Part shown: piece by piece, positions 1,780 through 21,018 of the stretch | How positions within the stretch are numbered: position 1 is the first letter of the stretch | How the letters are laid out: every line of letters starts with the position of its first letter | From: Planctomycetota bacterium | GTDB lineage: Bacteria > Planctomycetota > UBA1135 > UBA2386 | Length of the DNA stretch: 64,000 bases | Direction: 5' to 3' | NCBI GenBank assembly: GCA_046290465.1 | Contig: JBKAGP010000001.1 | Location: 1,344,001 to 1,408,000, forward strand | Made by a program: the position numbers and the translations under genes | Notes under the pieces: model-generated | What the model was told of the DNA's origin: nothing | Databases searched by the model: none | Seen by the model: only the letters and a program-made list of their open reading frames with translations

Positions 1780-2139
1780 CTAGCGGTCGGTCCGCCAGGA
1801 CGGCTGGAGTGCCCGGAACATCACGAAATTGGTGGTCCCTTTGGTCCCGCCAGTGCTGAACTTGTAGCGCACCAACTCCTGCATGGTGTTCGTGCTATCG
1901 TCGTTGACGGCGACCTTTACCCCCGACTGCCCCGAGGTGAACGTGACCGCTGTTGCGAGCAGAGTGCTTGGAGTCACGCTCTCCTTGGTGCGCGTCTCGA
2001 CCTGCCACGTCAGGCTGGCCGAGCTGTTCTCCAGCACCTCGACACCGAATGTCGCGAAGTCACCACGCACCGGCATCCACGGTGTGTAGACTGCGGTAAC
2101 GCCGGTATAGAGAATCTGTCCTTGAAGCTGATTTGTCAT
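1780..2139 (-). CDS. Small beta-rich protein, paralog C of tandem triplet (119 aa)
   Basis: Start revised to ATG 2139 after TAG-AGGATCCC; motifs LQGQ, YTPWMPVRGD, EV, ETR, ELVRYK, FRALQPSW. Confidence 0.85.
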   Translation of the reverse strand: MTNQLQGQILYTGVTAVYTPWMPVRGDFATFGVEVLENSSASLTWQVETRTKESVTPSTLLATAVTFTSGQSGVKVAVNDDSTNTMQELVRYKFSTGGTKGTTNFVMFRALQPSWRTDR

Positions 2140-2147
2140 GGGATCCT

Positions 2148-2489
2148 CTAGTTGGGCGACCACAAGGGCTGAGACAGCTGGAAGTGCATGACTGCAGATC
2201 CGGTGCTGTTGACGACGCGATACCGAACAAGGTCTTGGGCATTAACGACCTTGAACTGGAACAGCCCTGGCGTCGTAGAATCTACAACCTGGCTGCCGAT
2301 AGACGATGCACCCGAGTCGTCTTCATCGCTCGACTTGGTGTCCAAGTGGACGGTGTATTGGTTGGCCGCCGACACGTAGAACACCTCAATCGCCGCAACA
2401 CCATCGTTGCCCCCTGCCGGCATCCAGAAACCCTCGTATTTCACGGCCCCGTCTGAGGCCACGGTCTCTCCGAGAAGAAGTGGGTCCAC
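2148..2489 (-). CDS. Small beta-rich protein, paralog B of tandem triplet (113 aa)
   Basis: GTG start after GGAGG SD; motifs LLGE, WMPAGGN, EV, DTK, DLVRYR, FQLSQPLW. Confidence 0.85.
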   Translation of the reverse strand: MDPLLLGETVASDGAVKYEGFWMPAGGNDGVAAIEVFYVSAANQYTVHLDTKSSDEDDSGASSIGSQVVDSTTPGLFQFKVVNAQDLVRYRVVNSTGSAVMHFQLSQPLWSPN

Positions 2490-2498
2490 TTGATCCTC

Positions 2499-2852
2499 CT
2501 AGTTTGGCTGCCAAATTGGCGCGTTTGAACGAAAGTGGATCCACGCCGCAGTGGACTCACCATCTCCTGATGCCGTGAACTTGAAGCGGACAAGCTCCTT
2601 GGCGGCCGAGGGGTTGATTGTGCCCAACTCTGGCCACGCAGTCCCATTGATTGTCACACTTCCCGTCAAACCCGTGGCGGAACTGTCCGCATCCTCGGCG
2701 TTTTTAGTCTCAGCCTCACAAACAAGGCTGTAAGGCGACATCGCCTCGATGACTTCAAAGACCCCCGTAAATGCATCCCCTTGCCGGGGAAACCACGGGG
2801 AATAGTAGGTCGCACCAGGCCCCGGGGCGAATACTGTTTGCCCGATCAGCAT
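2499..2852 (-). CDS. Small beta-rich protein, paralog A of tandem triplet (117 aa)
   Basis: GAGGAG SD; motifs LIGQ, YSPWFPRQGD, EV, ETK, ELVRFK, FRSNAPIW. Confidence 0.85.
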   Translation of the reverse strand: MLIGQTVFAPGPGATYYSPWFPRQGDAFTGVFEVIEAMSPYSLVCEAETKNAEDADSSATGLTGSVTINGTAWPELGTINPSAAKELVRFKFTASGDGESTAAWIHFRSNAPIWQPN

Positions 2853-2907
2853 CGAACTCTCCTCTAACCGATCCTAGCGAGTGCGCACACCTCAGCGTGC
2901 GGTCGGC

Positions 2908-2969
2908 AGCCTCGGCGCCACCGACAAGAGCATCCTAGAGCCTCGGCGCCACCGACAAGAGCATCCTAG
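2908..2969. repeat. Perfect 31-bp tandem duplication AGCCTCGGCGCCACCGACAAGAGCATCCTAG x2
   Basis: Copies read directly at 2908-2938 and 2939-2969. Confidence 0.95.
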
Positions 2970-3028
2970 CCGGCACCGGAACTGCTTTTACACGGCAATA
3001 GTCCCCAGTCCGACCACCGGCCCTACCG

Positions 3029-3048
3029 ACCGGACAGATCTGTCTGGT
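3029..3048. promoter_or_regulatory. 20-bp palindrome, candidate operator upstream of the triplet operon
   Basis: ACCGGACAGA/TCTGTCTGGT, 9 of 10 positions complementary. Confidence 0.45.
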
Positions 3049-3208
3049 TGATCACACAATCTAGCACTGATTGAGCCGTCGCACACAAGCGGCGACGCGA
3101 CTCAGACACGAACCAGACATCCTTGACACAACAGGACTCACGCGGCCCGCCCCCATCGCGCACCAGGGCTGCCGATACAGCAGAACGCATGTCGGAGATG
3201 GACCGGCG

Positions 3209-4724: not shown

Positions 4725-5294
4725 ATGAGGAAGAAGACCGCTGCCGACACCGCGGCCAAGCCAGCTACGAGCGTGCTGCGTCCCCTGGTCGCCTTGGGGC
4801 TACTCGGGGCCCTGGGAGCCTGCCATGGACCACTGCGCCAAACCGACGCCGATGGCTGGCACACCTGGGGTGGACCACCACCACCACCGCTCCACCGGCC
4901 AAACCTCGGTGAACAGGTCCTGCTCTACCTGCCGAACAGGCTCGTGGACTTGGCGGAGATCGTCTCGGTCTCGTTCGGGGTGGGAGTCAGCCCCGGGGTA
5001 GATCTGCGGGTAACCCAATGGGGCCAATTCGCCCTCCAGGCAGGAGCAGGAGCAGGGTTCCAGTGGGACGACAGAGCGACCGACCCCAGGATAGCCACCG
5101 CCTATGCAACGGCGGCTGTGGGACCATGGAGAGCCGGAGCCGGCACAGGCCGGGTGGCGAGCGTGGGCGCATGGGAGGTCGCCGTAGGGCTTGGAGGCCA
5201 GAAGTTCGGGGTTGACCTTGCAGAGGCGGCGGACTTTCTGCTGGGGTGGTTCTTCATCGATATCCAAGGGGATGACTATGGTTGGGTCCGATAG
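4725..5294 (+). CDS. Lipoprotein of unknown function
   Basis: Lipobox LGAC after a hydrophobic stretch; PNRLVD...GVG...RVT and C-terminal DFLLGWFFIDIQGDD. Confidence 0.75.
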   Translation: MRKKTAADTAAKPATSVLRPLVALGLLGALGACHGPLRQTDADGWHTWGGPPPPPLHRPNLGEQVLLYLPNRLVDLAEIVSVSFGVGVSPGVDLRVTQWGQFALQAGAGAGFQWDDRATDPRIATAYATAAVGPWRAGAGTGRVASVGAWEVAVGLGGQKFGVDLAEAADFLLGWFFIDIQGDDYGWVR

Positions 5295-6339
5295 CCAGCC
5301 CGAAGGCGCCCCAGACACTGCGAGCAAGGACCGCGACGACACAGCCAGAGCGCCTAACCGGGACTCATCAGAATTCCTGACCAAGGGAGATCCTGAGCAC
5401 TACGAAATAGCGGCGAGAGGCACAGCTGCCCTCAAGGCATGGGCAGCTCGCAACCCTGGATTCCCCCTCTCTCTCCGCTTGACAGGTGCGATGATGCCTT
5501 TGGCCCAACTGCGCGGAGCACCCCTCACGTTGGCGGATCTTTCGCATGCGACCCTGTCACATGCTGACCTGAGCAATGCGAACCTGACAGCCGCAAGCCT
5601 CCAGGGGGCCGATCTTGCGAAGGCAAATCTGAGTGGCGCAAACCTAACGAGGGCAACACTCAGCGGCGCCGACCTATCCTGCACGGATCTGCGCGGAGCG
5701 AATCTGAAGCACGCCGACCTCAGCGAAGCCGACCTGAGGAGACCGCCTATCGGCCTCATCCTCGACTGTCAGGACATTCGCGGCACCCGCTTCTCACCCC
5801 GGGCACCAGATCCATGGTCAGTTCTCCGACGCGAATACACCGGGCCTCGCCTCCTCTTCCACCTGCTCTTGCTGGTCGCGTTTCTGTCTCGCTATCTGAT
5901 ACGTGCCGCGAAGTGGTCGGCCTGGGAGCATGTCCAGCCGCACTTAGAGAATGGCGATTGCCATTGGATCGCATGGCAGTTGACCGGAGGACCGGGGGCA
6001 GGCATGGCTACCGCGTTCGAAATCATGAGCAAGCAGGTGGCGCTGACGAACTCGTGGCCCCGGTGGCAGCTACTCCTCGGGTGGGACCTGGGCAACTTGG
6101 CAGTCGCCACGTCAGCAATACTGATCGCCTACAATGCCACGCGACTGGTCCTGACCTATCGACTGTCGGCAGTCCGCGATGCCGAGGAACGATCCAACTT
6201 CGCCCCGGCGCGAGAGGACTATTGGCGGTGGTGGCTGGCCCACAGGTGGTTCATGCGCTGGGTAGTATGGTTCGCGACCCTATCGGCAGCAGGTCATATT
6301 ATCCCCTGGCTACTGGAGACGATCACCAGACCTCACTGA
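5278..6339 (+). CDS. Pentapeptide-repeat protein with C-terminal membrane domain
   Basis: Run of A(D/N)Lxx repeats (ADLSH ATLSH ADLSN ANLTA...) followed by several hydrophobic segments; start uncertain (5272 or 5278). Confidence 0.85.
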   Translation: MVGSDSQPEGAPDTASKDRDDTARAPNRDSSEFLTKGDPEHYEIAARGTAALKAWAARNPGFPLSLRLTGAMMPLAQLRGAPLTLADLSHATLSHADLSNANLTAASLQGADLAKANLSGANLTRATLSGADLSCTDLRGANLKHADLSEADLRRPPIGLILDCQDIRGTRFSPRAPDPWSVLRREYTGPRLLFHLLLLVAFLSRYLIRAAKWSAWEHVQPHLENGDCHWIAWQLTGGPGAGMATAFEIMSKQVALTNSWPRWQLLLGWDLGNLAVATSAILIAYNATRLVLTYRLSAVRDAEERSNFAPAREDYWRWWLAHRWFMRWVVWFATLSAAGHIIPWLLETITRPH

Positions 6340-6410
6340 TTGTGACAGGGACCGACCCGAAGGAGAGGGCCGCACGAAGCCGAAGTGCGCAGATGCAGAG
6401 CAACGACAGC

Positions 6411-6839
6411 TCATCTCGCCGGCTTGTCGACCCACCTGACTCGGTCCTTCCCCAGGACCAGCACGTCTCCCCGCCTGACGATGACCTCCCGTAGGACCTG
6501 GCGTCGCTGCTGGTCGATGCGGTAGCGAGCACAGTCCGCCTTCGCCCGGACCACGATCCCCTCTGCGACCTCCCCGAGGACCCGCATGCGGAACAGGCCA
6601 TCGTGCCGAACATCGCCATCCAGCCGAACCACGACCACCTCCCCCGCCGCGAACCGCCGAGCACGCGGCTCGGAGGCCGTAGTGGAATGGCCGCAGGTTG
6701 AGACGAGCGTGTAGCTGGCCCGCTCCGGCCTGAACAGGTCCGAGAGGTTGCGGAGCGGAGAGCCCAGGGCCTGGAGCAGGGCGCAGAGGGCTTGCTCGGG
6801 GTTGACAGGACGAGAGAGATCGTTGGCGGGTCGCTTCAT
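6411..6839 (-). CDS. Hypothetical protein (142 aa)
   Basis: GGAGG SD before ATG; beta-rich C-terminal half. Confidence 0.6.
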   Translation of the reverse strand: MKRPANDLSRPVNPEQALCALLQALGSPLRNLSDLFRPERASYTLVSTCGHSTTASEPRARRFAAGEVVVVRLDGDVRHDGLFRMRVLGEVAEGIVVRAKADCARYRIDQQRRQVLREVIVRRGDVLVLGKDRVRWVDKPAR

Positions 6840-17976: not shown

Positions 17977-18023
17977 GGATCACTTCCGCTTGGATCACTT
18001 CCGCTTGGATCACTTCCGCTTGG
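17977..18023. repeat. 15-bp tandem repeat GGATCACTTCCGCTT x3 containing the stop codon of the upstream gene
   Basis: Units at 17977, 17992, 18007. Confidence 0.95.
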
Positions 18024-19239
18024 GGTAGTTCTTGAGCACCCACTGCCGCCACTCGGCGTCGAACGTCGCGCCGTCCAGTTCGAACGCCTCGTAGAGCAGC
18101 TTCGGCATCATCTTGCGCAGCCGCGCGCCGTCCGCCTCCCAGTCGCCGCTGCCGGGCACCTGCTTGAGCTTGTCGAGCATCAGGCCGACCTTCTGCGAGT
18201 CGCGCTCCATCAAGAACTGCATGCGCGACCACGACTGCGTGTGCGCGTGGAAGCCGAACTTCTCCCAGTCGTGCATCTCGCACAGCTTGTCGAACGCGAT
18301 CGTCGCGCCCTCGTGCCGCGAACGCTTGTAGATCTTCTCGTACCACTTGTTCTGCGAGTCCTGGTCGACCGACTCGCTGTCGCCGATGCGCGCGCTGATG
18401 AACTCGGACTCGATCTGACGCGAGTAGTAGTGCGCGAGGCCGGTCGAGAACCACAGCGGCAGCGGGTAGTAGAAGCCGCGATAGATGTTCATCAGGTTCT
18501 GCCACATCGCGAACACCATGTGGCTGTGCAGGCCTTCGCTGTCGAAGCCCTCCATGCCCTCGGCCGAGATGCACAGCAGCGGCTGGTGGGTCTGCTTGTG
18601 CACGAACCGGAACGAGTCCTCGGCCTGCGTGTCGCAGAAGCGCTGCATGTAGCGCGCCATGTCGGACTTCTTCTGGAACATCAGCAGCAGGTGCTTGTCC
18701 GGCGCGCCGAGGAACGGCCCCTTGCCGTTCTGCTTCGAGGTCTTGTCGAACGTGCCCTCGGGCGGCTGCACCAGCTCCTCGAACTGCCGGTAGGCCCGCT
18801 CGCAGCGCGCCGCGTACAGGTGCATCTGGGTCCACGGACCGAGCTTGCGCGGCTTGGACGGGAACTTGCGCCACCGCTGGTGCAGCGCCTTGCACTCGGC
18901 GTAGACGGCCTTCTTCTGCTGGTTGTCCTCGGGCAGCCGCGTGGTGGTCATGTTGAAGCCGATGCGGAAGTGCTCGGTCTCCATCCACAGCACGCGTCCG
19001 GGACCGAGCACCTTGTCGACGTCGGTGGTGCTGAAGTGATCCGCCCACGGAAACGGCCCGTAGCGCACCACGCCGAGCGCCTTCATCGCCTCCGGGTCCT
19101 GCTTGGTGAACGGGTCGCCCTTCTCGCTGAGCTTCTGGACCTCGTCGTCCTTCTGGGCGTGCACCGGGACCGTCGCCAGCAGGGCGAACAGCGAGAACGA
19201 CAGGACGGAGAGCAGCGGGCGGTGGTGCGGCGACGGCAT
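18010..19239 (-). CDS. Secreted hypothetical protein, zincin-like but lacking metal ligands
   Basis: Signal peptide ending VHA-Q; PLWFSTGLAHYY resembles PxWxxEGLAxY. Confidence 0.8.
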   Translation of the reverse strand: MPSPHHRPLLSVLSFSLFALLATVPVHAQKDDEVQKLSEKGDPFTKQDPEAMKALGVVRYGPFPWADHFSTTDVDKVLGPGRVLWMETEHFRIGFNMTTTRLPEDNQQKKAVYAECKALHQRWRKFPSKPRKLGPWTQMHLYAARCERAYRQFEELVQPPEGTFDKTSKQNGKGPFLGAPDKHLLLMFQKKSDMARYMQRFCDTQAEDSFRFVHKQTHQPLLCISAEGMEGFDSEGLHSHMVFAMWQNLMNIYRGFYYPLPLWFSTGLAHYYSRQIESEFISARIGDSESVDQDSQNKWYEKIYKRSRHEGATIAFDKLCEMHDWEKFGFHAHTQSWSRMQFLMERDSQKVGLMLDKLKQVPGSGDWEADGARLRKMMPKLLYEAFELDGATFDAEWRQWVLKNYPKRK

Positions 19240-19375
19240 CGTGGCGGCGGGGTGGGTTCGCGAACCAGGGGCCATCGCATCGTCGCGGTGCCCCAGGATC
19301 GCAGCAAGGGGTGGGTACGCGACGCGGGGGCGTGAGCCGAAGCCCACGCCCCCGCGTCGGATCGAGACCGGCGGG

Positions 19376-20305
19376 CTACTTGGCGTCGCCAGCGCCGACC
19401 GTCTCTTCTTCTGCGGCCTTCAGGGCGAGGTCGCGCAGCTCCTTCTCCTTCTTGCGCAGCTTCTCGCGCTCCTTGTCGACCTTGTCGAGATCCTTGTCGA
19501 ACTTCTTCAGCTTCTTCGACTTGGGACCGTTCTTCTCGACCTCCTTGTCGATGCGGCTGCGGATCAGGTCCTCCTTGGCGTCGAGCTTGTCGTACTGGCC
19601 GAGCAGCTTGCGCAGCTGCTTGATCGCCGACTTGGCGTTCTCGTCGTAGCAGCGATCGAGGTACTTGAACATCACCTTCCACAGGTCCGACTGCGACTGG
19701 TCGCCAGGCAGCGCCAGCTTGTGGTCGCCGTTCGGATCCGCGAAGAACAGGTGCGGCACCTTCTTCTCGCCCTCGCCCTTCTTGAACAGGTTGTAGAAGG
19801 GATGCTTCTCGGTGAGCACGTTCGGCGGCAGCTTGACGCACCGGAACCAGTGCGTCAGCAGGACCGTCTGCTCGTTGTCGAGCGTGCGGCTCAGCACCGC
19901 ATGGTCCGTGCCCTTGCACAGCTCACACTCGCGCAGGATCAGCAGCGGACGCTTGTCGCCGTCGGCGACCAGTTCGTACGCCTTCTCGAGCGGGAGCGCG
20001 CGATCGACTTCCTTCGCGACGGTGCGCTCACCCGGCTTGCGGGCAGGCGTCGTCGGCTTGTAGACCGGGTAGGTCCAGTCGATCTTGAGCATCTCCTTCG
20101 CCGTGCGGCCACGACGGAAGTCGAGCGGAATGCCGCCGCCACGGCCACCACCACCCGGAGCGGGAGCAGCACCACGACCCGGAGCAGAACCACGTGGGGT
20201 CCAACTGGACCCGCCACCGCCACTTCATCACTGAGGGGCTGCGGGGCGCGCCAGGATCATGGCGGCCACCGCGCAGAGAGCGCCGGTTGCGATCGTACGA
20301 AGCAT
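19376..20305 (-). CDS. Secreted thioredoxin-like protein, candidate selenoprotein with two consecutive UGA codons (309 aa with readthrough)
   Basis: GGAGGA SD, ATG 20305, signal peptide MLRTIATGALCAVAAMILARPAAPQ, TGA TGA at 20230-20225, then an open frame into the 238-aa ORF containing CELC; SECIS-like hairpin follows. Confidence 0.72.
20194..20217 (-). promoter_or_regulatory. Candidate bacterial SECIS element
   Basis: GTG-GC-GGGTCC-AGTT-GGACCC-CAC; apical loop 18 and 21 nt after the two UGAs, with G at loop position 2 followed by U. Confidence 0.6.
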
Positions 20306-20526
20306 GTTTCGGATTCCTCCAGGTGGTGCCGGGTGTGAGTGGCACCTGGCTGTCTCGGGCAGGCAGCCTTATCTGATCAGTGTATCGGCCTGCCGCCCCC
20401 AGGCAACCCAAGCCGCAAAACGACCTTCGAGCGACCCGCACGATCGGCGCGTGGCCCGTTGACTCGATGCCGTCGGCAGGACACGCTGCCGCGCTTCTCC
20501 GACCCCCACCGCGACGCTGCGCCACC

Positions 20527-21018
20527 GTGAACGCCTCCGACACCCCCGACGACCCGACCCCGGCCCCCGATTCCTGGTCGGCGACACTGGAAGAACTCCG
20601 CACCCGCTACCCCGGCCAGAAGGACAGCGTGCTGTTCTGCGTGCACAAGCTGCAGCAGGACCCGGCCGTCGGGCTGCCCGACCTGCGCGACGAGGCCGCC
20701 GACCGCGGCATCCCGATGGCCGGTCGCGCGCTGCATTCGGCCAAGGTGCTGCTCGGCATGGCCGAGGCCAGGCCGCGACGGCCGGCGGCGCCGCGCGACG
20801 AGCGCGCCGCCGCCGGCCAACGTGCCTCGCGAGCCGAAGGACGCGCGGAGCGCAGCCGTTCCGAGCGGGGCCGCAGCGACGAGCCCGCCGGCGCCATCGA
20901 GGACCAGGTGCTCGCGGCCGTTCGCCAGATCCAGTCCGCCGCTGGCGCCGAAGCCGAACGCATGCGCACCGCGATCCGGCAGGCGATCGCGATCCTGCAG
21001 GACGCGTTGGAAGAGTAG
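20527..21018 (+). CDS. Hypothetical protein
   Basis: Host-like codon usage; helical ends with a basic linker; GTG start assumed. Confidence 0.7.
   Translation: MNASDTPDDPTPAPDSWSATLEELRTRYPGQKDSVLFCVHKLQQDPAVGLPDLRDEAADRGIPMAGRALHSAKVLLGMAEARPRRPAAPRDERAAAGQRASRAEGRAERSRSERGRSDEPAGAIEDQVLAAVRQIQSAAGAEAERMRTAIRQAIAILQDALEE

Follow-up and report, generated by a model that had tools for sequence, protein, structure and literature searches.

A conserved gene of uncultured Planctomycetota with two adjacent in-frame UGA codons and one bSECIS-type hairpin probably encodes an exported Sec-Sec protein with a thioredoxin-like fold

Background

In bacteria, selenocysteine (Sec, U in sequence motifs) is inserted at UGA with the help of a hairpin whose short distance from the codon is fixed, and each event uses one SelB-GTP-Sec-tRNA complex. 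Since the spacing of the SECIS is tight in E. coli and Sec insertion is inefficient, two successive insertions are expected to be costly. In mammalian thioredoxin reductase, a C-terminal Gly-Cys-Sec-Gly arm connects a buried dithiol with the substrate as a shuttle for redox equivalents. The product of the gene described here would resemble this enzyme in that a flexible extension at one terminus bears two vicinal chalcogens, and orthologs with a UC or CU pair would share the chemistry of neighboring Cys and Sec. However, the reductase is a flavoprotein with the pair at its C-terminus, whereas the present protein would be an exported one of thioredoxin fold with a pair, mostly Sec-Sec, at its N-terminus, and there is no homology between the two. 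In MerA, a C-terminal Cys-Cys tail hands over from the vicinal pair to a buried CxxxxC.

A table of 119 prokaryotic selenoprotein families published in 2026 contains CU, UC-type, UxxU and UxxxxU motifs, while UU is absent, so that the adjacent Sec-Sec arrangement is not listed there for bacteria (PMC13188914). Neighboring chalcogens with Sec among them are also found, frequently at the end of the protein, in SaoC, SaoL, HgcA, MbdU and KCU-star (PMC13188914, Table 1), but these belong to other families, possess one Sec per motif and stand in metal or organometal contexts. Bacterial selenoprotein genes of the type of E. coli fdhF have a UGA directly followed by a small hairpin within the open reading frame, with a G and then a U early in the loop, and employ SelA, SelB, SelC and SelD (model in PMC13188914, section 5). 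The present gene is alike in these respects, but here two adjacent UGAs share a single hairpin. A literature search for a bacterial UU protein found none, and the sole Sec-Sec case that it found in print is an algal PDI. This protein, PDI_e, has a GUGUU motif and is termed by its authors the first selenoprotein with two consecutive Sec (PMC7539508). It also is a redox protein of thioredoxin fold. However, it is eukaryotic and depends on a SECIS in the 3'-UTR that can serve many UGAs at any distance, and its Sec-Sec lies within the domain, whereas the gene described here has a bacterial SECIS 18-21 nt downstream and the pair would be at the mature N-terminus.

Results

Layout of the gene

The gene lies on the minus strand of the window, i.e. 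the whole stretch of 64,000 nucleotides that was analysed (Table 1). A first-pass annotation had proposed a Shine-Dalgarno sequence, an ATG at 20305, a signal peptide, TGA TGA at 20230-20225 and a CELC motif, and each of them was re-read in place on the minus strand. The hairpin GGGTCC-AGTT-GGACCC, which it had described with the loop 18 and 21 nt past the UGAs, was likewise located at 20212-20197. The putative signal peptide consists of the n-region MLR, a hydrophobic core of 16 residues and the conserved c-region A-R-P-A-A-P-Q. The UGA pair is followed by 44 sense codons (residues 28-71), in agreement with the count given before, and then by the ATG at 20092, which opens a 238-aa ORF in translation table 11; from there the frame is open as far as the TAG at 19378-19376. 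The predicted product therefore has the order signal peptide, AAPQ-UU, disordered Gly/Pro-rich arm, thioredoxin-fold domain with CxxC (C127-E-L-C130, at 19927-19916 on the minus strand) and helical hairpin. The first 12 codons of the arm double as SECIS-coding sequence. A scan of 19100-20600 for consensus promoters and terminators gave no match, and a tRNA search of the window found none.

Table 1 Features of the selenoprotein gene and its neighbor (positions within the window)
Feature	Positions	Strand	Remarks
Whole selenoprotein CDS	19376..20305	(-)	309 residues and TAG stop at 19378-19376
Shine-Dalgarno-like GGAGGA	20315..20320	(-)	9 nt upstream of the start codon; read directly
ATG (20305-20303) and 25-codon putative signal peptide MLRTIATGALCAVAAMILARPAAPQ	20231..20305	(-)	in frame in 30/30 related loci
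Adjacent in-frame UGA pair, probably read as Sec26-Sec27	20225..20230	(-)	conservation and Sec/Cys exchange
bSECIS-type hairpin	20197..20212	(-)	stem GGGUCC 20212-20207, loop AGUU 20206-20203, stem GGACCC 20202-20197
Flexible Gly/Pro/Ala/Ser-rich arm, residues 28-58	20132..20224	(-)	pLDDT <50 for residues 13-60
Conserved N-terminal extension and thioredoxin-fold domain, residues 59-222	19640..20131	(-)	alignment, AF2 model, fold matches
C-terminal Lys/Glu-rich antiparallel helical hairpin, residues 223-297	19415..19639	(-)	AF2 helices
Neighbor gene, predicted exported 411-aa protein of collagenase (M9)/MA-clan-like fold, without HExxH	18010..19245	(-)	adjoins in 27/30 loci

Conservation of the UGA pair and exchange with Cys

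Two in-frame TGA codons are present in each of the 15 genomes from the genus, among them the one that contains the window, and the in-frame pair recurs in other genera and families. Among 30 related loci, none of which lacks a TGA at this place, the pair is UU in 22, UC in 6, UG in one and CU in one; a census of 78 species-level loci yielded 55 UU, 9 UC, one CU and one UG. Cys thus occupies the second position in six of the 30 loci, and it is found at the first position in L039 (CU) and L096. The TGA-free homologs, which belong to a family that comprises roughly 400 clusters when grouped at 50% identity, have a Cys at the first position in the context ...A-Q-C-[P/S], mostly as one N-terminal Cys rather than a pair. 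Judged from this conservation, the locus is a real and widely conserved gene of uncultured Planctomycetota. The first-pass annotation had put forward a secreted selenoprotein with Sec-Sec directly after the signal peptide, and had recommended to look whether the UGAs are conserved or aligned to Cys; a lack of conservation of the upstream signal peptide would have spoken against it. UU predominates over a minority of UC, CU and UG, with Cys in the TGA-free homologs, and the signal peptide is in frame throughout the 30 loci. Given the conserved in-frame TGAs and the Sec/Cys exchange at both positions, we consider it highly probable that the back-to-back UGAs encode two neighboring selenocysteines in an exported thioredoxin-like protein. 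This degree of confidence applies to the identity and the decoding of the gene, the redox function lying outside it.

An assembly error or a pseudogene was rejected on the grounds of this conservation and of a contig from an independent run (X2) that is identical across 20041-20450. For a relative, a 319-nt contig from an RNA library (X17) covers 20046-20306 with no change listed at the TGAs; like X16, it may derive from DNA present in the library, and is thus no proof of transcription and silent on translation.

The bSECIS-type hairpin

The model for bSECIS elements comprises a loop of 3-9 nt, a stem of 4-16 bp, a G within the first two loop positions, a distance of 16-37 nt from the UGA and an MFE ≤ -7.5 kcal/mol (PMC13188914, section 5). 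With a 6-bp stem, the loop AGUU, a loop start 21 nt beyond the first UGA and 18 nt beyond the second (counted from the last nucleotide of each codon), and -10.4 kcal/mol for the hairpin alone (z -3.2), the element agrees with this model in every point. The first-pass annotation had assumed a single downstream SECIS and had suggested a covariation analysis, which indeed revealed compensatory changes in a hairpin conserved in position (in 27 of 30 loci, its loop starts 21-28 nt past the pair). The covariation score was 0.357 vs 0.111 in shuffles, 82.9% vs 69.2% of the cells were paired, and 16 vs 4.4 cells had changes on both sides, each value being reached by none of 500 shuffles; slid controls scored below the hairpin. 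Five of the seven pairs had changes on both sides, a count equalled by 53 of the 500 shuffles.

In a strict test (perfect stem, 6 bp or longer; loop of 3-5 nt that starts 21-28 nt past the pair and has a G as its first or second nucleotide), 79 of 103 TGA-bearing locus entries passed, compared to none of three Cys forms and, among 5000 60-mers drawn at random from the window, 338, the 103 entries being two locus sets that overlap in some genomes. The 24 TGA-form entries that failed mostly have an internal stem mismatch. In the G+C-rich context, the folding energy of single sequences is indistinguishable from that of shuffles (z -0.66 for 46 nt, +0.35 for 60 nt). RNAalifold found only four pairs in the alignment (-3.96 kcal/mol), because the sequences with 5-nt loops sit one column off. 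An Rfam search of 20050-20400 gave no family match, with one irrelevant match at E 7.4.

Sec machinery

The presence of the Sec machinery in the genome, another point to be checked according to the first-pass annotation, is evident from a tRNA-Sec (72.8 bits, anticodon TCA, i.e. UCA) and from SelA, SelB (wing matched) and SelD, the SelD gene having an in-frame TGA of its own. SelA was found in 40 of 41 relatives. A reassignment of TGA was rejected, since family genes terminate with TGA (9 of the 28 that are complete in their locus) and the SECIS is present. Translation would start at the ATG at 20305, and SelB with Sec-tRNA(Sec) would recode both UGAs to Sec under the guidance of the one in-frame hairpin, each UGA lying at an allowed distance.

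The protein body

According to the AF2 model, the body domain has a thioredoxin-like fold with the CxxC after the first strand; the first-pass annotation had named a thioredoxin-like body with CELC. The best matches for residues 74-222 were the DsbD C-terminal domain 2fwe (Z 8.3, rmsd 3.2, 114 aligned), 7tkv_A (Z 8.1, rmsd 3.6, 117 aligned) and 1sen (Z 7.5, rmsd 3.4, 109 aligned). The Foldseek rows are all thioredoxin folds as well, the best one being 1sen (E 6.5e-3). The C-terminal helices comprise residues 224-259 and 265-291 (pLDDT 91-98). Searches of 27 members against Pfam and NCBIfam gave neither a thioredoxin family nor any other model at E ≤ 0.1, with matches at chance level only; by sequence the protein does not match PF13899 and its relatives, and in fold and CxxC it is thioredoxin-like. 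The nearest named Atlas clusters, those with PF13899, PF13098 and PF03190, have scores of 0.80-0.82 and serve as leads only. The protein shares with Thioredoxin_7, the DsbD C-terminal domain, DsbH and ERp18/AGR2 the fold and the position of the CxxC, but differs from them by the residues C156, H168 and H185, which are invariant in the alignment along with C127 and C130, by the N-terminal Sec arm and by the C-terminal helical hairpin.

The conserved neighbor gene

The gene of the collagenase-fold protein adjoins the selenoprotein gene in either gene order, and a paralogous pair of both genes is also adjacent. The 411-aa neighbor has no match in Pfam. Its AF2 model (pLDDT 88.4) gave nine Foldseek matches at E ≤ 0.001, all of them collagenases (E 4.1e-4 to 8.4e-4). 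However, the zinc-binding motif HExxH, by which an M9 collagenase or gluzincin peptidase is recognized, is absent from 23 of 25 aligned neighbors, including that of the window.

A complex prediction for the paralogous pair in its Cys form, which stood in for the window's own pair, scored 0.57, and the best of three controls scored 0.00. The runs share at least 17% of the contacts, with a partner pLDDT of at least 64. Of 157 solved complexes, 116 attain the mark for such predictions, as do 2 of 215 mismatched pairs, and scores ≤ 0.60 comprise 18 of the 157 solved complexes and both mismatches that passed; since the alignments were self-made, these calibration counts are only rough. The prediction lends weak support to a partnership; if the selenoprotein works with a partner, the collagenase-fold protein is the likely candidate. 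The other genes nearby encode CrcB, an SBP_bac_5 protein and a sigma-54 activator.

Discussion

Possible functions of the Sec pair

Export and removal of the signal peptide would place the vicinal Sec-Sec at or very near the mature N-terminus (...A-A-P-Q-U-U), the signal-peptidase site being ambiguous due to the Pro at -2 of the Sec in the c-region A-A-P-Q. The pair would then lie at the tip of an arm, some 30-70 residues long, disordered and rich in Gly and Pro, that is tethered to the CxxC domain. Sec-Sec, or Sec-Cys in the UC and CU orthologs, might form a strained vicinal diselenide or selenenylsulfide, and it is conceivable, if tentative, that this works as a mobile redox center in exchange with the cysteines of the domain and with a substrate or partner, on the principle of the thioredoxin reductase tail. 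A relay of electrons from UU to the CxxC, as proposed in the first-pass annotation, would be plausible. However, such a relay cannot be the whole story, because relatives without the CxxC retain the N-terminal Cys: several CxxC-less representatives still have the N-terminal Q-C (e.g. P0201 and P0208). Twenty of the 23 cluster representatives that lack the CxxC at its position also retain the Cys of F-[RH]-C-V-K, as determined by regular expression.

With the same gene and the same decoding, the Sec-Sec tip might instead be a ligand for a soft metal or metalloid (e.g. Cu(I), Hg(II), As or Ni), catch the ion at the end of the flexible arm and hand it over to Cys and His residues of the domain or to the neighbor. 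Although unlikely, this is the most serious alternative to the redox function. The invariant C127, C130, C156, H168 and H185 could make up a metal site, the Cys-Cys tail of MerA provides a precedent, and the published vicinal CU and UC motifs mostly occur in metal or organometal proteins, namely SaoC, SaoL, HgcA, MbdU and CopZ-like proteins (PMC13188914, Table 1). In contrast, no metal-handling genes were seen among the adjoining ones, and the best fold matches (DsbD-gamma, DsbH, ERp18/AGR2) are thioredoxin folds of the redox type. Copper chaperones of the Sco type are absent among the best 50 fold matches listed, from which their exclusion does not follow.

A more elaborate scheme would combine the observations on both genes: the one SECIS hairpin would load SelB twice and thus give rise to a vicinal diselenide N-terminus, the collagenase-fold protein, as a pseudo-peptidase, would grip the collagen-like Gly/Pro arm, and the tip, as on a tethered fishing line, would supply the thioredoxin-fold domain with electrons or a soft metal or take them from it. 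Neither this chemistry nor this way of decoding is known to be described for bacteria. In this full form, the scheme is speculative and somewhat less probable still than metal binding.

If the Sec-Sec reading is true, a vicinal Sec pair at the mobile end of a protein would add a new kind to the natural redox or metal-binding groups of bacteria. The gene is also of interest as a natural test bed, since in dozens of species two UGAs share one hairpin: the tolerance of the spacing, the speed of SelB reloading and the efficiency of tandem Sec insertion could be addressed with it, and these questions also bear on designed diselenide proteins.

One or two selenocysteines

It might be assumed that only a single UGA is read as Sec, whereas a near-cognate tRNA (Trp, Cys or Arg) decodes the other one or termination frequently occurs there, so that the product has one Sec. 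Paired SelB-dependent events are indeed mechanistically demanding, and there are UC, CU and UG orthologs with the hairpin at the same position, which indicates that one Sec is enough in some lineages. Nevertheless, we regard a one-Sec product as very improbable for the UU genes. UU is the majority form (22 of the 30 loci, 55 of the 78 in the census) across several families, whereas a merely leaky codon would be expected to drift into a sense codon, and the exchange between Sec and Cys is independent at the two positions. Moreover, both distances, 21 and 18 nt, are inside the bSECIS range of 16-37 nt, and each of them is used singly by the single-Sec orthologs L029 and L039.

Anchoring as a lipoprotein

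The succession of signal peptide, invariant Cys or Sec, long low-complexity linker and globular domain is also the layout of a lipoprotein, in which the first Sec or Cys would be the acylation site, the arm a tether and the chalcogen an anchor rather than a catalyst. However, the lipobox L-[AS]-[GAS]-C is not matched by the preceding residues, which are A-P-Q or A-Q. When signal-like N-termini that end in Cys were collected from the genome, they had A, G or S at -1 in 178 of 251 cases and Q in 10 of 251, L-A-[AGS] being the commonest triplets. Sec would also be a costly replacement of an acylated Cys with no known benefit. On the basis of the lipobox comparison, lipoprotein anchoring was rejected as extremely unlikely.

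One continuous frame

In the databases, the locus appears as a gene for a separate cytoplasmic protein with an internal start, which would turn the upstream part into a 25-codon leader ORF with a tandem stop. This is the output of gene callers, and long stop-free stretches are common in every frame of G+C-rich DNA, but the interval behaves like coding sequence and there is hardly any probability left for two separate units. In all 30 loci, the body is in the same frame as the signal peptide, and this frame is always kept while the spacing from the pair to W-x-Y-P varies from 39 to 71 residues, all indels being whole codons. Differences at codon positions 1, 2 and 3 amount to 1414, 856 and 2436 in the signal peptide and to 1468, 1339 and 2634 in the arm, so that the third position dominates in both. 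The alignment contains no conserved start codon 3' of the TGAs, M72 of the window being I, L or A in orthologs. From the shared frame, the third-position bias and the lack of such a start, both parts are read as one frame. In addition, GGIPLDFRRGRTAKE, which lies upstream of the annotated start, is conserved at the protein level, the TGA-free homologs are continuous and have the signal peptide and a Cys at the corresponding place, and the hairpin covaries. The assumption of two units is thereby largely refuted.

The first-pass annotation had predicted that standard gene callers truncate the gene, and the best 120 database relatives listed are all N-truncated, covering 66-87% of the query. The public entries are "hypothetical proteins" without the N-terminus. 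Since the TGA-bearing members are thus stored without the signal peptide and the Sec pair, predictions of their localization and function are wrong.

Decoding of the TGA pair

The 309-residue gene on the minus strand (19376-20305) is a real selenoprotein gene with a candidate Sec26-Sec27 pair, and both its identity and its decoding are well supported. The first-pass annotation had outlined it from Shine-Dalgarno sequence to hairpin, and all of these coordinates proved correct on the minus strand.

Features of the selenoprotein gene, its product, its neighbour and the paralogous gene pair
Feature	Position	Strand	Remarks
Shine-Dalgarno-like GGAGGA	20320-20315	minus	read from sequence; 9 nt, then ATG
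Start codon ATG and typical 25-codon signal peptide, MLRTIATGALCAVAAMILARPAAPQ	from 20305	minus	read from sequence
TGA TGA pair	20230-20225	minus	in frame, directly after signal-peptide codons
44 sense codons after the pair, to ATG of 238-aa table-11 ORF	ATG 20092	minus	
Hairpin GGGTCC-AGTT-GGACCC	20212-20197	minus	read from sequence
Stop TAG of the selenoprotein frame	19376	minus	no other stop after TGA pair
Neighbour gene, 411 aa, exported	18010-19245	minus	next gene, same strand; no Pfam hit
Paralogous pair, own genome (locus L122)	G000:C1:4242300-4246100		collagenase-fold 804-2060, TGA-free arm-thioredoxin protein 2124-3176, 63 nt apart
Signal helix	N-terminus		AF2
Disordered stretch	residues 13-60		AF2
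Conserved extension	residues 59-118		AF2
Thioredoxin fold	to residue 222		AF2; CELC after first strand
Two long antiparallel helices	residues 224-291		AF2

A six-frame search matched the read-through protein in 34 of 41 related genomes. Two in-frame TGAs are present in each of the 15 genus genomes, own genome counted, and in members of other genera of the family and of another family in the order. The N-terminal codons bear out the earlier selenocysteine claim, since across related genomes the UGA positions are conserved or Cys and the signal peptide is kept, sharing one frame with the body in 30 of 30 loci translated across the site. Stops occur only at this conserved site (UU 22, UC 6, UG 1, CU 1; residues at the two codons, with U for TGA read as Sec). 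In 19 sequences measured, the linker from the pair to the W-x-Y-P motif comprises 39-71 residues and always differs by whole codons, and third codon positions dominate the substitutions on both sides of the TGAs (codon positions 1/2/3: signal peptide 1414/856/2436, Gly/Pro-rich arm 1468/1339/2634, Trx domain 3086/1961/5672). Orthologues have I, L or A in place of M72, the database start of the window protein, and in the family alignment (A2) the segment GGIPLDFRRGRTAKE that precedes this residue is conserved at the protein level. TGA terminates nine of 28 family genes complete in their locus and is therefore still a stop codon here.

An assembly artefact at the TGA pair is ruled out by public sequencing runs: the stretch, whole or in part, is present in 20 runs from 11 studies, and a contig from run X2 is identical to the window over 20041-20450. 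From X17, an RNA library that may contain DNA, a relative's contig of 319 nt covers 20046-20306 with 34 differences, none of those listed being at the TGAs.

The Sec machinery, for which the first-pass annotation had proposed to look, is represented by all four genes (selA, selB, selC and selD) in the own genome, which is one contig of 6.59 Mb. The tRNA-Sec scores 72.8 bits, above the Rfam cut-off, and is called by ARAGORN as tRNA-SeC with anticodon TCA; SelA and the SelB winged-helix domain were found, and SelD carries an in-frame TGA of its own, making it a selenoprotein itself. SelA is present in 40 of 41 relatives, the sole miss being an 81% complete genome (G005). The selD gene directly adjoins selA at G000:C1:1309619-1311717, approximately 32-34 kb before the window start.

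The SECIS hairpin

Section 5 of PMC13188914 models bacterial SECIS elements with a loop of 3-9 nt, a stem of 4-16 bp, a UGA-loop distance of 16-37 nt and an MFE ≤ -7.5 kcal/mol; one of the first two loop positions is G, usually followed by G or U. The window hairpin has a 6-bp stem, an AGUU loop and spacings of 21 and 18 nt from the two UGAs, and alone it folds at -10.4 kcal/mol (z -3.2). In the nucleotide alignment of 25 sequences (A1), 82.9% of the cells are paired (69.2 +/- 1.9% in 500 shuffles), 16 cells are changed on both sides (4.4 in shuffles) and the covariation score is 0.357 (0.111 in shuffles), values that none of the 500 shuffles reached; sliding the partner by one column lowers the score to 0.201 (+1) or 0.112 (-1). 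Compensatory stems include GGGUCC/GGACCC, GGGGCA/UGCUCC and GGUGCCC/GGGCACC. The SECIS covariation that the first-pass annotation had proposed to test is therefore present in the score, although the count of pairs changed on both sides (5 of 7) is unremarkable, as 53 of 500 shuffles reach it. This count speaks against the SECIS reading, as does the recovery of only four pairs by RNAalifold and a folding energy not better than that of shuffles in 46- and 60-nt contexts. An Rfam search of the hairpin region, which gave no match, also counts against it.

Counted from the first base of the pair, the loop of the best perfect hairpin begins 21-28 nt downstream in 27 of 30 loci, at 24 nt in 20 of those. 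A strict hairpin test was passed by 79 of 103 TGA-form entries (two overlapping locus sets) and by 338 of 5000 random window 60-mers; all three Cys forms with DNA failed it. The idea that one SECIS decodes both UGAs is also supported: both spacings fit the model, and the CU orthologue (L039) has the second-codon spacing and UC orthologues the first-codon spacing, the hairpin keeping its place in the protein frame. Each spacing is thus used alone somewhere in the family, the strongest argument at hand that a single hairpin could serve both codons.

Family range and the Sec/Cys exchange

A pattern scan with one genome per species found 220 relatives, and 78 distinct loci were kept. The site reads UU in 55 (and, by eye, in L118), UC in nine (and, by eye, in L111), CU in one and UG in one; the rest are nine loci without a pattern-found motif (including L111 and L118, some of the nine being cut by a contig end), two without the body and one spurious hit. 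The records are labelled Planctomycetota or unclassified, bar a few odd MAG labels. Titles such as Luminiphilus sp., Candidatus Kuenenia and uncultured Brocadiaceae (on records such as L045, L046 and L061) probably stem from short contigs that were misbinned or misnamed. Of 301 genomes sampled evenly across the phylum, at least 24 gave a match, a lower bound given the stricter first screen, and forms with one or two TGAs are spread over five families. Against 1.84 billion cluster representatives, a profile search returned 402 clusters at E ≤ 0.001, of which 153 lie at E ≤ 1e-30.

In full-length TGA-free members the signal peptide ends in ...A-Q-C-[P/S...], and the own-genome TGA-free paralogue reads ...LAAQ-C-PSYQ at the same place. 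Sec/Cys pairing is established for position 1 by this Cys and for position 2 by the UC forms. At G017:C29 (L028) a TGA-free paralogue (4894-5685) stands in tandem with a UU gene (5936-6826). Public protein entries of TGA forms are all named "hypothetical protein", and the query coverage is at most 87% for each of the 120 best database relatives listed, which agrees with the earlier expectation that gene callers truncate the protein.

Signal peptidase I follows a -3/-1 rule, and the TGA-free homologues fit a putative site of this enzyme just before Gln (L-D-A|Q-C, L-S-A|Q-C etc.), as judged from sequence; A-A-P-Q forms are ambiguous. Cleavage there would make Sec residue 2 of the mature protein. 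The signal-peptide end is a misfit to the lipobox of the own genome, where position -1 of signal-like N-termini before Cys is A, G or S in 178 of 251 cases and Q in 10.

Protein fold and possible function

The AF2 model from 27 full-length sequences (mean pLDDT 76.4, pTM 0.71) agrees with the thioredoxin-like CELC body on a flexible arm that had been proposed, with weak structural matches. Foldseek gave no match at E ≤ 0.001; all its matches are thioredoxin folds, the best being 1sen (E 6.5e-3). VIA-align found likeness to the DsbD C-terminal domain (2fwe; Z 8.3, rmsd 3.2, 114 aligned), DsbH-type 7tkv_A (Z 8.1, rmsd 3.6, 117 aligned) and ERp18 (1sen; Z 7.5, rmsd 3.4, 109 aligned), where a Z near 8 may reflect merely a common arrangement; matches to the helical hairpin (Z up to 9.6) lie under the level meaningful for helices. 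Invariant residues in A2 include U/C26, U/C27, W77, P80, P120, R125, C127, C130, C156, H168 and H185.

After export, the vicinal Sec-Sec (or Sec-Cys) would sit at the end of a flexible arm of 30-70 residues, where it might serve as a mobile redox centre in exchange with the domain cysteines and a substrate, a reading by analogy that we offer only tentatively. The GCUG tail of thioredoxin reductase works as such a mobile redox shuttle, and the shuttle disulfides of sulfhydryl oxidases follow the same principle. The main rival, soft-metal handling by the Sec pair, appears unlikely to us; its precedent is the tail of MerA. A second analogy in its favour comes from the many CU-motif metal selenoproteins in Table 1 of PMC13188914.

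Both readings poorly explain the relatives without CxxC. Among 23 cluster representatives with another sequence at this position (regex-based), the C156-equivalent Cys is kept in 20 and the N-terminal Q-C in several. P0201, P0208 and P0215 have GxxY or AxxG there and retain the Cys of F-[RH]-C-V-[KR] and, at the N-terminus, Q-C or a Cys close by. This retention suggests that the arm chalcogen may work with C156 or the partner rather than with CxxC.

The 2026 review of prokaryotic selenoproteomes lists 119 families in Table 1, with CU, GxUC, UxxU and UxxxxU motifs and a few proteins with two or three Sec; neither UU nor a family like the present one is in this table, and "Planctomyc", "diselenide" and "signal peptide" are absent from its text (PMC13188914). 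Full-text literature searches found no bacterial Sec-Sec protein; the primary papers cited as references 59-66 of PMC13188914, or supplements, may nevertheless include the family. The excerpted text of the GOS paper has UxxU forms only (PMC2398784). An algal PDI_e with GUGUU is reported, in the excerpt of PMC7539508, as the first selenoprotein with consecutive Sec; it is eukaryotic with a 3'-UTR SECIS, whereas the window gene has a bacterial in-ORF hairpin. The gene is of a known type, a bacterial in-ORF-SECIS selenoprotein with a thioredoxin fold, but it differs by the tandem Sec-Sec, which one hairpin serves and which lies at the mature N-terminus.

The conserved neighbour gene

The neighbour gene adjoins the selenoprotein gene in 27 of 30 loci, mostly downstream (upstream in L035 and L036). 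Its AF2 model (pLDDT 88.4) gave nine Foldseek matches at E ≤ 0.001, all bacterial collagenases, among them 7esi_A (E 4.5e-4, TMq 0.44, 351 columns, 10% identity). Since HExxH is absent in 23 of 25 aligned sequences, the predicted structure points to a protein of collagenase fold that probably does not act as a zinc peptidase. The fold is collagenase/MA-clan-like, with invariant W87, E89, T90, H92, F93, H142, R147, E149 and Y152.

Three further copies exist in the own genome, one directly upstream of the TGA-free selenoprotein paralogue, so the pairing is kept in the paralogous pair too. For this paralogous pair, not the window's own, complex prediction scored 0.57 (best of three controls 0.00), with at least 17% of contacts agreeing between runs and a partner pLDDT of at least 64, which weakly supports a predicted complex. 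Among solved complexes 116 of 157 attained the mark, as did 2 of 215 mismatched pairs; only 18 of the 157 did so with a score ≤ 0.60, and so did both passing mismatches. These counts hold only roughly, as own alignments were fed to the prediction. At G039:C39 (L034) a UU gene has copies of the collagenase-fold neighbour to either side.

Upstream, a divergent 212-aa ORF without Pfam hit (20380-21018, plus strand) adjoins the selenoprotein gene in 15 of 30 loci, window included, all from the genus and the closest genera. Between selenoprotein and neighbour gene, an inverted repeat of 17 bp (19321-19358, minus strand), which has a TTCG loop and a single G-T pair, starts 17 nt past the selenoprotein stop codon. 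The consensus terminator scan did not list it because it has no T-run; possible roles of this intergenic hairpin are termination without a U-tract and stabilisation or processing of the mRNA.
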